A DNA stretch of 24,000 nt from an uncultured Dehalococcoidales bacterium. Lineage in GTDB: Bacteria; Chloroflexota; Dehalococcoidia; Dehalococcoidales; Fen-1064. The DNA lies in assembly GCA_964493955.1 (NCBI GenBank), contig CAZBPZ010000002.1:1-24000 (forward strand), given 5' to 3'. The notes beneath the pieces were generated by a model. It was not told where the DNA came from. It did no database searches and saw only the letters and a program-made list of their open reading frames with translations. The translations under genes were made by a program, and so were the position numbers. Positions within the stretch are counted from its first letter, which is position 1. Every line of letters starts with the position of its first letter. Shown here piece by piece: positions 269 to 19,923 of this stretch.

Positions 269-297
269 TTGACAGGCCGGCACCACCGTGCTAGCAT
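269..297 (+). promoter_or_regulatory. sigma70-like promoter of the pantothenate-operon leader
   Basis: TTGACA (269-274), 17-nt spacer, TAGCAT (292-297). These AT-rich hexamers stand out in ~65% GC DNA. Predicted TSS near 304. The -10 hexamer lies at the centre of a perfect 9-bp inverted repeat (277-285 / 300-308). Confidence 0.5.
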
Positions 298-303
298 CTT
301 GGT

Positions 304-459
304 GCCGGGTAGAGAGAGGCTACCAACCTGCCTCGGGCGGGTGGTAAGCCCCGGCAAAGCGAGCATAGCGTTAGTCGCTTGGATCGGACACGACCGAGAC
401 GGCAGTGGTTGAAGGTCCAGAGTGCCCTCTCCGGTCGTGCCGGAGAGGGCAAATTTTTT
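304..459 (+). promoter_or_regulatory. candidate cis-regulatory 5' leader RNA (riboswitch/attenuator-like, ~155 nt) of the pan operon
   Basis: Spans the predicted TSS (~304) to the U-tract of the terminator (459). It has no ATG and no SD-led mini-ORF. Several mutually exclusive helices are possible: 304-309 GCCGGG with 350-355 CCCGGC, 357-362 AAGCGA with 375-380 TCGCTT, and 381-385 GGATC with 414-418 GGTCC. Segment 305-320 (CCGGgtAGAGagaGGC) is a gapped copy of the terminator 3' arm (440-450, CCGGAGAGGGC). Confidence 0.45.
424..459 (+). terminator. rho-independent terminator located inside the pan-operon leader
   Basis: GCCCTCTCCGG (424-434), loop tcgtg (435-439), CCGGAGAGGGC (440-450): 11 perfect base pairs followed by AAATTTTTT (451-459). 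It lies 18 nt upstream of the ATG at 477. The upstream neighbour is divergent, so no + strand gene ends here. Confidence 0.8.
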
Positions 460-476
460 CGGGCGAGGTGCCGGAC

Positions 477-1391
477 ATGAGTAGGCCGCAACCAAAGCTC
501 GGTTTCATCGGGGCCGGAACGGTGGGCTCTGCCCTGGCCATCAGGCTGGCGGAGCAGGGCTACCCGGTGGTGGCGGCTGCCAGCCGCAGGCCGGCCTCGG
601 CGGCCCGGCTGGCGGAAAGTGTGCCGGGCTGCCGGGCGGTCGGGAGCGCCCAGGCGGTGGCCGACAGGGCTGACCTGGTCTTCATTACCACCCCGGACGA
701 TGCCATTGCACCCGTTGCCAGCAGCGTGAGCTGGCACGAAGGCCAGGGCGTTGTCCACTGCAGCGGGGCTGACTCGGTTGATATTCTGGAGCCGGCCCGC
801 CGCCTCGGGGCACGGGTCGGGGGGTTCCACCCCCTGCAGACCTTTGCCAGCGTGGAGCAGGCCATCGCCAACATCCCCGGCTCCACCTTTGCCGTGGAGG
901 CGGAAGGGCCGCTGGCGGCCACGCTGGTCGGGATGGCGGAGGCCCTGGCAGGGCATGCCATCCGGCTGGAGGCCGGGGCCAAGGTCCTCTACCACGCCGC
1001 GGCGGTGGTGGCCTGTAATTACCTCGTCACGCTGGTGAAGCTGGCGACCGACCTCTGGCAGGTGTTCGGGGTGGAGCGTGATGAGGCTACGGCGGCCCTG
1101 CTGCCGCTGCTGCGTGGCACGCTGGCGAACATCGAGCGGGTGGGCATCCCTGGCTGCCTGACCGGCCCGATTGCCCGCGGTGATACCGGTACCATTCGCA
1201 AGCACCTCGAGGCGCTGCGGCACCGGGCGCCCGGCTTGTTCGCCGTCTACTGCGAGCTGGGAAGGCAGACTGTACCTGTTGCCGTTGCAAAGGGTAGAAT
1301 AGGGGAGCGCCAGGCGCGGGAGCTTCTGGCCCTGCTGGCGCCGGAGGCCGGTGGCGGCCTCCAGGAAATGCACGAGGAGGCAGATAAATGA
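477..1391 (+). CDS. Rossmann-fold oxidoreductase of the DUF2520 type; putative PanG-like ketopantoate reductase
   Basis: ORF 405..1391 trimmed to ATG 477 (GAGGTG at 465-470, 6-nt spacer). N-terminal GxGxxG (FIGAGTVGSALA). The C-terminal half carries motifs I associate with DUF2520 (HPLQTF, LYHAAAVVACNYLVTL, LTGPIARGD). It is the first gene of an operon with panD and panB, and its stop overlaps the next start (ATGA at 1388-1391). Confidence 0.8.
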   Translation: MSRPQPKLGFIGAGTVGSALAIRLAEQGYPVVAAASRRPASAARLAESVPGCRAVGSAQAVADRADLVFITTPDDAIAPVASSVSWHEGQGVVHCSGADSVDILEPARRLGARVGGFHPLQTFASVEQAIANIPGSTFAVEAEGPLAATLVGMAEALAGHAIRLEAGAKVLYHAAAVVACNYLVTLVKLATDLWQVFGVERDEATAALLPLLRGTLANIERVGIPGCLTGPIARGDTGTIRKHLEALRHRAPGLFAVYCELGRQTVPVAVAKGRIGERQARELLALLAPEAGGGLQEMHEEADK

Positions 1392-1828
1392 GACACCGTG
1401 CCATACTGGGCCTGGCTGCCCTGGCGATGACCGGGCTGCTCTTCGGCGGCTGCGCCGCCAGGCCCCCGGTGGATGACAACGTAAAACTGCAGGAGCTCGT
1501 TGCCGTCGGCCAGACCATTGACCAGGTCAAGGCGTTGATGACGCCCCATCTCCTGGCCCAGGCGGTCGTTTACCCGGCCAGCAACATCGTCAAGCAAGAG
1601 TCCGGTAACTGGGAGTTTACCGCCAAGTCGGGCGGTAAAGAGGGGGATACTGATGCCCCCTTCGTGGTTATCATTGTGGGTCCAAACCAGCCGGGCAAGG
1701 AGTACCTGGCGGTGCTGTTCGAGGACGGGGTCGTCTTCGGCACCGAGTGGTTTTCCTATTCCTATGCCCAGGTGCTGCACCTGCTGCTGACCGGCCAGAT
1801 GGAGGATGCCGTATCGCAGTCCCAGTGA
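1388..1828 (+). CDS. small predicted lipoprotein, function unknown
   Basis: 146-aa ORF. The N-terminus [22 protein letters not shown] has a positive n-region, a hydrophobic core and a lipobox-like FGGC. GC3-rich codon usage resembles the neighbours. It is translationally coupled to the upstream gene through the ATGA overlap. Confidence 0.65.
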
Positions 1829-2240: not shown

Positions 2241-3077
2241 ATGATGCGCACCACTGTCATCCAGGTCCGGGAGATGAAGGAGAAGGGCGAGAAGATTACC
2301 ATGCTCACTGCCTATGACTACGCCACCGCCCGGATTATTGACCGGGTGGGTATCCCCCTGATACTGGTGGGCGATAGTCTGGGGATGGTGGTCCTCGGCT
2401 ACGAGTCCACCGTGCCGGTGACGCTCGAGGACATGCTGCACCACGCCCGGGCGGTGGTGCGTGGCACCGAGCAGGCCCTGGTGGTGGGTGACATGCCCTT
2501 CATGACCTACCACCTCAGCACCGAGCAGGCCCTGAAGAATGCGGCGCGTTTCATCCAGGAGGCCGGGACACAGGCCGTTAAACTGGAGGGCGGCGTGACC
2601 GTGGCCGACAAGGTGAAGCGCCTGGTGGAGTGCGGTATCCCGGTGATGGGGCACATTGGCCTGACACCCCAATCGGTGCATCAGCTCGGGGGGCACCGTG
2701 TCCAGGGGCGGAGCCCGGAGGCGGCCGTAAGGTTGCTGGAGGATGCCCTTGCCCTGGAAGCGGCCGGGGCGTTTGCCATTGTGCTGGAGAGCGTGCCGGC
2801 ACCGCTGGCAGCCCTTATCACCCGGAAGGTGAAGGTACCTACCATCGGCATCGGGGCCGGGCCGGACTGCGACGGCCAGGTACAGGTCATCAATGACCTG
2901 CTGGGGCTTTTCACTGACTTCGTGCCGCGCCACGCCAAGCAGTATGCCCGGCTGGCCGATGCCATGACATCGGCCATCACCCAGTACTACGAGGAAGTAA
3001 AAAGCGGCCGGTTCCCCACCAGGGAGCATAGCTTCTCCATGGACGAGAGCGTCCTGGCGGAGCTTGAGGCCCGCTAG
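2241..3077 (+). CDS. panB: 3-methyl-2-oxobutanoate hydroxymethyltransferase (ketopantoate hydroxymethyltransferase)
   Basis: 278-aa ORF with KITMLTAYDY, LVGDSLGMVVLGY, VVGDMPF, VKLEGG, GHIGLTPQS and IGIGAG, all typical of PanB. An AGGAGG overlaps the panD stop. The start is ATG 2241 or 2244. Confidence 0.95.
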   Translation: MMRTTVIQVREMKEKGEKITMLTAYDYATARIIDRVGIPLILVGDSLGMVVLGYESTVPVTLEDMLHHARAVVRGTEQALVVGDMPFMTYHLSTEQALKNAARFIQEAGTQAVKLEGGVTVADKVKRLVECGIPVMGHIGLTPQSVHQLGGHRVQGRSPEAAVRLLEDALALEAAGAFAIVLESVPAPLAALITRKVKVPTIGIGAGPDCDGQVQVINDLLGLFTDFVPRHAKQYARLADAMTSAITQYYEEVKSGRFPTREHSFSMDESVLAELEAR

Positions 3078-3540
3078 GAGCCGTGGCGGCTGGTAGGGTC
3101 AACAAGCATGTGGCCGATTCCAGGCTGGGTGATGATGTAACGGGGGTTGTGGGGGTCTTTCCAGCTTGCGCCGCAGGTGCAGGATGCAGGCCCGCCGGTA
3201 TTCGAATTCGTCCTGGTACTCGGCGCCCCGCACCCGCGTGAGCAGGTCACGGTGCAGCATGACGCGGCCCATGTTGCGCATCAGCTGGGCCAGCAGTTCG
3301 GGTATGCTGGAGGGCTTGGTGAAATAGTCGTCCGCCCCCAGCTTCAGGCCTTTCACCTTGTCGGCGTCCTTGCCCCGGGTGGTCAGCCTGATGATGGGGG
3401 GTGGTGGTGAACTGGCGGGTACGCTGGCAGAGTTCGTAGCCGTTTGGTTCGGGCAGCTCAACGCGTATCTCGTCCGGTGTCCGGGCCAGAGTACCCACCT
3501 CGTCGCGCCCCTGTGCCTTCACCCCTTGTAGGTGCCCCGG
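3074..3540 (-). pseudogene. decayed KdpE/OmpR-family response regulator (multiple frameshifts plus an internal deletion)
   Basis: Minus-strand pieces in three frames line up with KdpE-like regulators. ORF 3247..3597 contains PDEIRVELPEPNGYELCQRTRQF (receiver beta3/alpha3, with the phospho-acceptor position reading E). ORF 3099..3461 contains PIIRLTTRGKDADKVKGLKLGADDYFTKPSSIPELLAQL joined directly to MRNMGRVMLHRDLLTRVRGAEYQDEFEYRRACILHLRRKLE, so the linker and the first half of the winged helix are missing. A third frame gives PRYIITQPGIGHMLVD, ending at a TAG (3076-3074) that overlaps the panB stop. No intact N-terminal DD/E acidic pocket is recognisable. Confidence 0.6.
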
Positions 3541-3596
3541 GGTAGAGCGGGCAGGGCGTGGCCCGTGTGCTGGTGTAGTGGTGCCACGCCCCGGCA

Positions 3597-3625
3597 TACC
3601 AATGCCGGCGCGGCAGTGTTATAAT
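3597..3625 (+). promoter_or_regulatory. extended -10 promoter for the AmmeMemoRadiSam genes
   Basis: TGtTATAAT at 3617-3625 is an exact extended -10 consensus. The -35 is weak (TACCAA, 3597-3602, 17-nt spacer). Predicted TSS ~3632. GGGGAG (3646-3651) lies 6 nt before ATG 3658. Confidence 0.5.
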
Positions 3626-3657
3626 TTGACCGGAGAGCCCCCGCCGGGGAGCCAGCG

Positions 3658-4701
3658 ATGCGTGAAGCGCTGCTCTATGAGAAACGCCCCCGTGCCTTTG
3701 TCCGCTGCGGTACCTGCCAGTGGCGTTGCAGCATCGCCCCCGGCCGTACCGGGTTCTGCGGCATGTACCGCAACCTGGACGGGAAGCTCTTCAGCCTCGG
3801 CTATGCCCGGGTCTCCTCCATGGCGGCCGACCCGGTAGAAAAGAAGCCCCTCTTTCATTTCTACCCCGGCACCCTCTGTTTCTCGCTGGGGGGGTGGGGT
3901 TGCAATTTCCGGTGTCCCGGCTGCCAGAACTGGCAGATTTCGGCGGCGCGTGACGAGGAGTCCTGGCGTGGTAGCCGGCAGGTCGAGCCGGCGGCGGCGG
4001 TGGCGCTGGCGCAGCAGTATGGCTGCCGGGGGATATCCTGGACCTACAATGAGCCGTCCGTCTGGTTTGAATACACCCTGGAAGGCGCCCGTATTGCCCG
4101 CGAGCAAGGCCTCTATACTGTCTATGTCACCAACGGCTACCTCAGCCCGGAGGCGCTTGATACCATCGGGCCTTACCTGGATGCCTGGCGGGTGGATGTG
4201 AAGGGGTTTTCGGACGAGGTGTACCGGAGGCTTTGCGGGGTGGTACACTGGCGGGGCATACTGGAGGTGGCGGTACGTGCCCGCCGGCGCTGGGGCATGC
4301 ATGTTGAGGTGGTCACCAACATTACGCCGACGGTGAACGATGACGATGAGCAAATCCGGGCGATTGCGTCCTGGATACGTGACAGCCTGGGCGAGCTGAC
4401 ACCGTGGCACGTCACGCGTTTCTACCCCCAGTACCGGATGCAGGACCTGCCGGTCACCCCGGTGGAAACGCTGGAGCGGGCCTGGAAAATCGGGCGGGAG
4501 GCGGGGCTGAAGTTTGTCTACCTGGGTAATGTGCCGGGACACCATTCGGAGAGCACGCTCTGCTACTCGTGCGGGCGGCTGGTGGTGGCCCGGAGCGGCT
4601 ACCAGGCGGACGTGGTTGGCCTGGACGGCTCGCGCTGCGCTCACTGCGGGGCCGAGCTGAACTTCAGGCCGGCCACGGAAGGAGGCGGAGATGACGCTTA
4701 G
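3658..4701 (+). CDS. amrS: AmmeMemoRadiSam system radical SAM enzyme
   Basis: 347 aa. Radical SAM motif CNFRCPGC (CxxxCxxC). The family-typical N-terminus has CGTCQWRC...FCG and DPVEKKPLFHFYPG. There is a C-terminal CYSC...CAHC cysteine pair. It sits immediately upstream of, and overlaps by 11 nt, the Memo/AMMECR1 gene. Confidence 0.9.
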   Translation: MREALLYEKRPRAFVRCGTCQWRCSIAPGRTGFCGMYRNLDGKLFSLGYARVSSMAADPVEKKPLFHFYPGTLCFSLGGWGCNFRCPGCQNWQISAARDEESWRGSRQVEPAAAVALAQQYGCRGISWTYNEPSVWFEYTLEGARIAREQGLYTVYVTNGYLSPEALDTIGPYLDAWRVDVKGFSDEVYRRLCGVVHWRGILEVAVRARRRWGMHVEVVTNITPTVNDDDEQIRAIASWIRDSLGELTPWHVTRFYPQYRMQDLPVTPVETLERAWKIGREAGLKFVYLGNVPGHHSESTLCYSCGRLVVARSGYQADVVGLDGSRCAHCGAELNFRPATEGGGDDA

Positions 4702-19837: not shown

Positions 19838-19866
19838 ATTGTAGGCAACAGCGCCGTGGCTGTCAA
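19838..19866 (-). promoter_or_regulatory. consensus promoter of tldD-pmbA (implies a leaderless mRNA)
   Basis: Minus strand TTGACA (19866-19861), 17-nt spacer, TACAAT (19843-19838). Exactly 6 nt (ccggct) precede ATG 19831, so the predicted +1 is the A of the start codon. No SD is present. Confidence 0.55.
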
Positions 19867-19894: not shown

Positions 19895-19923
19895 TTGACA
19901 CCCGGCCAAGCGTGAACTACAAT
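19895..19923 (+). promoter_or_regulatory. consensus promoter of alaS-ruvX
   Basis: TTGACA (19895-19900), 17-nt spacer, TACAAT (19918-19923). Predicted TSS ~19930. It stands back to back with the tldD promoter. Confidence 0.55.

Follow-up and report, generated by a model that had tools for sequence, protein, structure and literature searches.

Organization of the locus

The stretch of DNA analysed here, referred to as the window, comprises the first 24,000 nucleotides (nt) of contig CAZBPZ010000002.1 (GenBank assembly GCA_964493955.1, forward strand) from an uncultured Dehalococcoidales bacterium of the Chloroflexota. Close to its 5' end lies a pantothenate operon, and our subject is the 5' leader of this operon, which carries a tandem pan motif (Rfam RF01749) followed by a predicted intrinsic terminator. 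The first gene encodes a Rossmann-like/DUF2520 oxidoreductase (477-1391, plus strand; Pfam PF10727 and PF10728). Its translation signals lie at 465-479 on the plus strand, with the Shine-Dalgarno (SD) sequence GAGGTG at 465-470 and the ATG start codon at 477-479. The N-terminus of the product agrees with its homologues, the nearest of which are about 70% identical and come from Dehalococcoidia and other Chloroflexota genomes and metagenomes. Downstream on the same strand are panD, coding for aspartate 1-decarboxylase (1863-2234; Pfam PF02261; NCBIfam TIGR00223, 149 bits), and panB, coding for ketopantoate hydroxymethyltransferase (2241-3077; Pfam PF02548, E 3e-118; TIGR00222). The start of panD is probably the GTG at 1863.

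The leader is located in the intergenic region 81-476 between two divergent genes. An initial annotation of this DNA, made from the sequence alone, had described the upstream neighbour as divergent and had recognized a near-consensus promoter ahead of the leader, and both descriptions hold. The neighbour is a nitroreductase-family gene on the minus strand, the 5' end of which occupies 1-80. Its start codon is the GTG at 80, a match to the N-terminus of Pfam Nitroreductase covers its first 26 residues (E 4e-4), and a promoter-like site of its own runs from 140 to 111 on the minus strand. The operon has a sigma-70-type promoter at 269-297 on the plus strand, consisting of the -35 hexamer TTGACA (269-274), a 17-nt spacer with TG at 289-290, and the -10 hexamer TAGCAT (292-297). 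In a consensus scan this site matches 10 of 12 positions and has the TG two bases 5' of the -10 hexamer; it predicts a transcription start near 304. An equivalent TTGACA-type promoter, ending 5-23 nt ahead of the first hairpin of the motif, is present in all 22 related leaders examined, which supports the predicted start in the window.

The leader contains a tandem pan motif

Two bulged hairpins follow the promoter on the plus strand. Hairpin 1 (318-350) consists of three base pairs, a bulged A347 (or A346), five base pairs, a bulged A326, six base pairs and the loop 333-335. Hairpin 2 (374-403) has four base pairs (374-377/400-403), a bulged A399, five base pairs (378-382/394-398), a bulged A383, three base pairs (384-386/391-393) and the loop 387-390. 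The linker between them (351-373, plus strand) contains the segment AAGCGA (357-362), which can pair with UCGCUU (375-380) in the 5' arm of hairpin 2.

Whether this fold belongs to the pan family had been left as a question for an Rfam search. At gathering scores the whole window gives no match. A permissive cmscan search of 230-500 (271 nt) places RF01749 at 318-406 on the plus strand with 25.7 bits (E 0.015), under the family's gathering score of 36.2 bits, a curated threshold that serves annotation and does not itself describe biology. The alignment spans the full model (positions 1-92 of 92), places both hairpins and all four bulged A residues, and leaves every flanking pair canonical or G-U. 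The low score of the window is likely due to its G+C-rich linker, its longer hairpin-1 loop and a CCAACC/GGUGGUAA variant of hairpin 1. The same search returned twister-P1 (13 bits) and adapt33_4 (17 bits), both far under their own thresholds, and we took these as chance matches. Among 20 orthologous leaders, defined as loci with a recognizable hairpin 2 upstream of the DUF2520 gene, 10 pass the RF01749 gathering score (36.3-48.2 bits). The Rfam threshold evidently misses G+C-rich members of the family.

Among the sequences of the original pan alignment (Weinberg et al. 2010, PMC2864571) are three from Dehalococcoides whose hairpins are like those of the window. In D. mccartyi, hairpin 1 reads GCCACCGACC...GGCGGUGAGC (also given as UGCCACCGACC...GGCGGUGAGC) and hairpin 2 reads CCGCUUGGAUCG...CGGCCGAGACGG, and both match the window. 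The annotated alignment shows the Dehalococcoides motif, then a stem GAUGCCUUCUUCGG...CCGGGGAGGGCAUC, then a gene beginning VQTLGFIGAGTVG, which is DUF2520 (PMC2864571). Both hairpins and the downstream stem of the window can be aligned with D. mccartyi NC_002936.3/736022-736109 and NC_007356.1/635641-635728, and the DUF2520 gene lies 3' of the motif in both genomes.

The features by which the pan motif is defined are all found here. Each hairpin has two bulged A residues (A326 and A347; A383 and A399), and the hairpins stand in tandem, 23 nt apart, as in most pan members, of which single-hairpin copies also exist. Together they occupy the 5' untranslated region (UTR) of a panB/panC/panD-type operon, with the promoter at 269-297 upstream and DUF2520, panD and panB downstream. 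We assign 318-403 to the tandem pan motif as a Dehalococcoidia subtype. This membership is secure, because orthologous leaders pass the gathering score and the D. mccartyi members of the original alignment share the hairpins, the downstream stem and the DUF2520 gene. The element is thus no new class; it belongs to a pan subtype that Dehalococcoides already represented in the original alignment.

A conserved predicted terminator follows the motif

A G+C-rich stem-loop lies at 423-451 on the plus strand, with a 5' arm at 423-435, a three-nucleotide loop at 436-438 and a 3' arm at 439-451. It has 13 pairs, 9 of them G-C, and a folding energy of -26.2 kcal/mol, and it is followed on the transcribed strand by the U-tract TTTTTT (454-459). 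In the AAA at 451-453, A451 pairs with U423, which leaves two unpaired A residues between stem and T-run. The arrangement is that of an intrinsic terminator, as predicted from sequence alone, and the earlier claim that it is the best such site of the 24 kb is confirmed: the runner-up has 7 pairs.

Conservation was assessed at 80 loci encoding DUF2520 relatives (denoted by L numbers), taken from species-representative genomes. The leaders of 22 of them were aligned by structure with the window, giving 23 sequences, to which the following values apply unless stated otherwise. Pairing extends to 97.1% of cells over hairpin 1, hairpin 2 and terminator taken together, compared with 31-50% in slid-partner controls. 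Ten pairs show changes on both sides, and the observed covariation score was reached by none of 500 shuffles. Hairpin 1 accounts for four of these pairs, out of its ten, with 97.8% of its cells paired; the upper terminator stem contributes four covarying pairs. Hairpin 2 is near-invariant in sequence, its arms having column identities of 0.94-0.95, as against 0.40-0.41 for the linkers and 0.24 for the hairpin-1 loop. The whole leader folds better than shuffled versions (z = -4.2, with 0/200 shuffles as good).

The terminator shares in this conservation. The base of its 5' arm (CC[U/C]UCUC, with forms such as CCUUCUC and G-CC-U/C-UCUC) has a column identity of 0.95, on a par with the pan hairpins, and the base of its 3' arm one of 0.90, around a loop at 0.49. 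A plain terminator would have no reason to keep its sequence amid randomized surroundings, and on this comparative evidence we regard the terminator as belonging to the conserved regulatory element. A covariance model of hairpin 1, hairpin 2 and terminator, built from the 23-leader alignment, was run against 81 sequences and recovers the whole unit in 51 of them, namely the window and 50 related loci, with the terminator at the same place in each. The window, being among the training sequences of the model, scores 100.9 bits. Matches of the model on the minus strand are palindromic terminator stems and were discarded. Two further matches (L072 and L075) come from retrieved stretches that end in a short hairpin unlike the usual terminator.

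The element also occurs in variant settings. At about 18 loci (L010 1023-2018; L047 2020-2766; and about 16 more, L004, L011, L014, L015, L017, L022, L024, L030, L032, L034-L036, L041, L044, L072 and L075) the pan and terminator unit lies approximately 1 kb upstream of DUF2520, ahead of a Peptidase_S58 gene. If the beta-aminopeptidases DmpA and BapA belong to the Peptidase_S58 family, as we assume, this gene may supply beta-alanine under pan control. Locus L008 (2851-2980) has only hairpin 2 and the terminator, with a promoter immediately 5' of hairpin 2, so that hairpin 1 appears dispensable in at least one Chloroflexota lineage. In the D. mccartyi sequences NC_002936.3 and NC_007356.1 a stem GCCUUCUUCGG...CCGGGGAGGGC is kept 3' of the motif and is followed by UAUCAUUAU instead of a clean U-run; this stem may act differently or terminate weakly.

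Hairpin 2 is complementary to the terminator

The conserved terminator 5' arm and the invariant hairpin-2 3' arm can pair with each other; for example, 5'-GCCUUCUCGG-3' and 5'-CCGAGACGGC-3' form a duplex interrupted by one U-C mismatch. In the window, the 3' arm of hairpin 2 (390-404, plus strand), which we propose as the 5' strand of an anti-terminator, can form 14 pairs with 423-438 (401-404/423-426, 397-399/428-430 and 390-396/432-438). The duplex energy is -20.5 kcal/mol, and no other segment of the leader pairs as well with the terminator 5' arm. The 3' arms of terminator and hairpin 2 are near-copies (GAGA[A/G]GGC and GAGACGGC).

This complementarity is maintained in relatives. The core anti-terminator pairs form in 95% of cells in the 23-sequence alignment and in 93.3% across the 51 sequences, against 43-72% in slid-partner controls. 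In 41 of 49 leaders nothing upstream pairs better with the terminator 5' arm than the hairpin-2 3' arm does; the count is 18/23 among the leaders used to frame the idea and 23/26 among the further ones. At one pair, 403:424, three of the 51 aligned leaders (L040, L043 and L035) have U-A in place of C-G, and inspection by eye adds L049. Support for the anti-terminator is therefore, at the level of sequence comparison, conserved complementarity rather than compensatory change, and weak covariation is expected, because both strands are near-invariant.

We compared the two alternatives energetically on transcripts ending at the terminator loop, allowing the hairpin-2 3' arm either upstream or downstream pairing only. 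The two ensembles differ by a median of 0.4 kcal/mol and lie within 3 kcal/mol of each other in 30 of 49 leaders. When the terminator 5' arm and loop are shuffled, the median rises to 3.9 kcal/mol; the observed difference is below the shuffled mean in 37/49 leaders (Wilcoxon p = 9e-8, a statistic that, like the others used here, treats related sequences as independent). In folds of the window at increasing transcript length, hairpin 2 forms in transcripts up to 404, the anti-terminator in those up to 434-445 and the terminator in those up to 451. Length-dependent folds together with balanced energies are the behaviour that would be expected of a kinetic switch.

The linker may take part in this exchange. 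Segment 351-362 (CCGGCAAAGCGA) is complementary to the hairpin-2 5' arm (375-387) and would hold that arm once the anti-terminator forms. A search for a conserved linker partner of the hairpin-2 5' arm found one in several leaders, including the window (351-362), and it is not general; CCAAG-type segments occur in the linkers of L007, L009, L012 and L013, and not in all relatives.

A model for attenuation in the pan leader

A transcription attenuator in the 5' leader of the pantothenate operon, with the terminator as part of a regulatory element, had been suggested in the initial annotation and is supported by the conservation of the terminator described above. We consider it fairly probable that this attenuator is built from the tandem pan motif (318-403) in the DUF2520-panD-panB leader, with the terminator (423-459) as its expression platform and hairpin 2 as an anti-antiterminator. 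The 3' arm of hairpin 2 would have two mutually exclusive partners, its own 5' arm or the 5' arm of the terminator (423-438). With hairpin 2 closed, the terminator 5' arm would be free, the terminator would form and transcription would stop at about 459, leaving a transcript of approximately 155 nt. With hairpin 2 open, its 3' arm would capture the terminator 5' arm, and the resulting anti-terminator would permit read-through into the pan genes. An effector that recognizes the bulged-A hairpins and reports sufficiency of pantothenate or coenzyme A (CoA) might clamp hairpin 2 and so turn the operon OFF. Effector-driven OFF switching would suit the feedback control of a biosynthetic operon, and we regard an OFF-type logic as plausible. 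The analysis establishes family membership, the three helices, the conservation of the terminator, its conserved complementarity to hairpin 2 and the near-equality of the two fold energies; that the leader switches, in which direction and in response to what effector are inferences.

As effector, a dimeric or oligomeric RNA-binding protein seems to us somewhat more likely than a small molecule. That the linker varies and that one-hairpin versions occur (L008 and the delta-proteobacteria) speaks rather for a protein. A dimeric protein was also suggested when the motif was described, on the grounds that the hairpins are simple and occur in tandem (Weinberg et al. 2010, PMC2864571). In the same study, in-line probing of a single-hairpin Geobacter pan RNA revealed no modulation by pantothenate, CoA or beta-alanine at 1 mM, and the authors cautioned that the Geobacter construct may have been inadequate. 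Our literature searches on the motif turned up genome and transcriptome annotations but no functional work after that study; the transcriptome papers locate pan motifs in transcribed 5' UTRs of panB operons.

Several observations weigh against our model. No effector is known, the negative in-line probing being that of a single-hairpin Geobacter construct with three compounds. The Rfam score of the window itself stays below the cut-off. A better partner for the terminator 5' arm exists elsewhere in 8 of 49 leaders, usually the 3' arm of hairpin 1, and complementarity is poor in a few (L019, L053, L054 and L056). Covariation of the anti-terminator is weak, amounting to one pair and three cells in 51 sequences, and the statistics share the assumption of independence already mentioned. 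Hairpin 2, which is transcribed first, is favoured in 27/49 leaders and the anti-terminator in 22/49, so that the direction of the switch is not readable from the energies. For the window itself the balance tips towards the anti-terminator by 9.5 kcal/mol, partly because linker 351-362 can take the freed hairpin-2 5' arm. The U-run directly adjoins the terminator stem in relatives; the two A residues that separate them in the window may reduce termination efficiency. Finally, the D. mccartyi orthologues combine the stem with a poor U-tract.

Alternative explanations

The effector may differ from the one we favour while the platform stays the same. The tandem bulged-A hairpins could bind a small molecule of the pantothenate/CoA pathway directly, as a metabolite-binding riboswitch, with pantoate, ketopantoate, 4'-phosphopantothenate, 4'-phosphopantetheine, dephospho-CoA and acyl-CoA as candidate ligands; we treat this as a tentative possibility. 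The expression platform follows the classic OFF-riboswitch design, with the 3' strand of the sensor helix serving a second time in the anti-terminator. Stem nucleotides near the bulged A residues are conserved across phyla, and the motif is tied exclusively to pan genes. The published probing covered three compounds and one single-hairpin construct, on whose adequacy its authors were themselves cautious. No riboswitch for CoA or pantothenate is known, and reviews of 2022 continue to count CoA among the cofactors that lack a known riboswitch. However, pantothenate, CoA and beta-alanine gave no modulation at 1 mM, and a selective pocket would find little space in a short hairpin with two bulges of one nucleotide each. 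The linker, moreover, varies in length and sequence and one-hairpin versions exist, which fits independent protein-binding sites better than a two-domain aptamer.

A specific form of this idea is that the Dehalococcoidia element is a small-molecule riboswitch for a further pathway compound (pantoate, 4'-phosphopantetheine, dephospho-CoA or acyl-CoA), with cooperative ligand binding and hairpin 2 as the switching helix. We think this rather unlikely. If true, it would fill the long-noted gap of a riboswitch that senses CoA or vitamin B5, and the terminator/anti-terminator platform would supply the functional assay that has been missing.

Alternatively, there may be no switch. The terminator could be constitutive or leaky and simply set a low level of expression, or it could end a stable RNA of about 155 nt with a function of its own, the likeness of the arms arising from shared ancestry or a shared binding factor. 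The near-absence of anti-terminator covariation would be in keeping with this, as would the finding that hairpin 2 plus terminator is invariably the more stable choice for the full-length leader (-75.6 kcal/mol), and near-copy 3' arms could be explained by duplication or by a common recognition factor. Yet a plain terminator would not hold its 5' arm at 0.95 identity while loop and linkers are randomized. Near-equal fold energies across 49 species, lost on shuffling, would likewise be unexpected, and in every case the element stands between a promoter and pan genes, where there is no upstream transcript for it to end. On this evidence we judge a switchless leader improbable.

The initial annotation had placed the anti-terminator elsewhere. 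In its model, segment 305-320 mimics the terminator 3' arm, and a P1-like helix formed by 304-309 and 350-355 sequesters this segment and so decides termination. Part of this stands for the window. The 5' segment (304-317, plus strand) can pair through GCCGGG (304-309) with CCCGGC (350-355), the resulting helix is present in minimum free energy (MFE) folds, and 304-320 is complementary to the terminator 5' arm at about -15.7 to -16.1 kcal/mol. This makes it the second-best partner, and the hairpin-2 3' arm is the stronger and conserved competitor. The comparison with relatives bore out the hairpins and the terminator but not the proposed mimic at 305-320, which is window-specific, as is the P1-like helix. 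In 11 of 22 relatives the -10 hexamer ends at most 9 nt before hairpin 1, leaving no such segment, and equivalent segments of relatives pair weakly with the terminator arm (-0.9 to -12.8 kcal/mol). In every fold of the window, furthermore, 304-309 is taken by 350-355 and 319-321 (GCU; 318-320 in the Rfam alignment) by the base of hairpin 1. We find control by the 5' segment very improbable and regard both it and the 304-309/350-355 helix as lineage-specific accessories at most.

Leader-peptide attenuation is rejected: as had been noted before, 304-423 holds no SD-preceded open reading frame (ORF) led by ATG, and its only other frames, beginning with TTG or GTG, are unconserved and lack an SD sequence.

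Neighbouring features

Between the DUF2520 gene and panD there is an ORF at 1388-1828 (plus strand, 146 aa) that encodes a lipoprotein signal peptide and has no Pfam or NCBIfam family match. In the related locus L023 panD directly follows the DUF2520 gene, and for this reason the ORF looks like an insertion into the operon. It is the only ORF of the operon left unassigned, and because of its lipoprotein signal peptide and lack of a family match we rejected it as a candidate regulator; no candidate for a protein acting on the leader emerged from the operon. A role of DUF2520 as the ketopantoate reductase 'PanG' is unsupported in the literature and in NCBIfam; DUF2520 matches Rossmann-fold models weakly, and the PanG of B. 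subtilis is an ApbA/PanE-type protein. The operon does not include panC, and a gap of approximately 580 nt (3078-3657) follows panB before the next long ORF, which is a radical SAM gene (3658-4701). Elsewhere in the window, a divergent intergenic region contains back-to-back near-consensus promoters at 19838-19866 (minus strand) and 19895-19923 (plus strand). Each matches 11 of 12 positions (TTGACA-17-TACAAT), and they are the best promoter matches in the window.

Comparison with known regulatory systems

The leader has in common with other RF01749 members its two tandem hairpins, each with two conserved bulged A residues, and its position upstream of panB and panD, and the Chloroflexi fall within the host range of the family. 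The family description contains neither a downstream terminator nor the complementarity of its arm to hairpin 2, both of which are seen here for Dehalococcoidia. Pan members of Bacilli and Clostridia end next to SD-like sequences (AGAGGG/GAAGG), whereas those of Dehalococcoidia have a terminator instead. The expression platforms thus differ by lineage, as expected of a modular sensor. What is newly documented for the pan motif of Dehalococcoidia is the conserved terminator, the complementarity of its 5' arm to hairpin 2, and the energetic balance between the two folds. The effector of the motif has been unknown since the description of 2010, and termination at about 459 versus read-through provides a concrete, mutationally testable read-out with which metabolite or protein effectors could be screened.

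PyrR attenuation offers a parallel in layout. In the pyr operon of Bacillus, the binding hairpin is an anti-antiterminator that sequesters the 5' strand of the anti-terminator, and an effector that stabilizes this hairpin leads to termination. By analogy with this general picture of the PyrR system, the pan unit appears to share its succession of binding hairpin, anti-terminator and terminator. However, the PyrR binding loop resembles the pan hairpins neither in sequence nor in structure, the Rfam searches gave no PyrR match, and no pan-binding protein is known.

OFF riboswitches, such as those with purine and SAM-I platforms, have in common with the pan leader that the 3' strand of the helix closing the sensor is also the 5' strand of the anti-terminator, that the terminator follows within about 20 nt, and that the competing folds are near-isoenergetic. 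In contrast to them, the pan element has no multi-helix junction, obvious ligand pocket or demonstrated ligand, its sensor being a pair of simple bulged hairpins, and it is unrelated to them in sequence and fold.

The NAD+-I riboswitch (nadA motif), which we take as a lead, also has two similar bulged stem-loops in tandem upstream of cofactor biosynthesis genes. Its conserved nucleotides differ from those of pan and it has no Rfam match in the window; a ligand is known for NAD+-I, unlike for pan.

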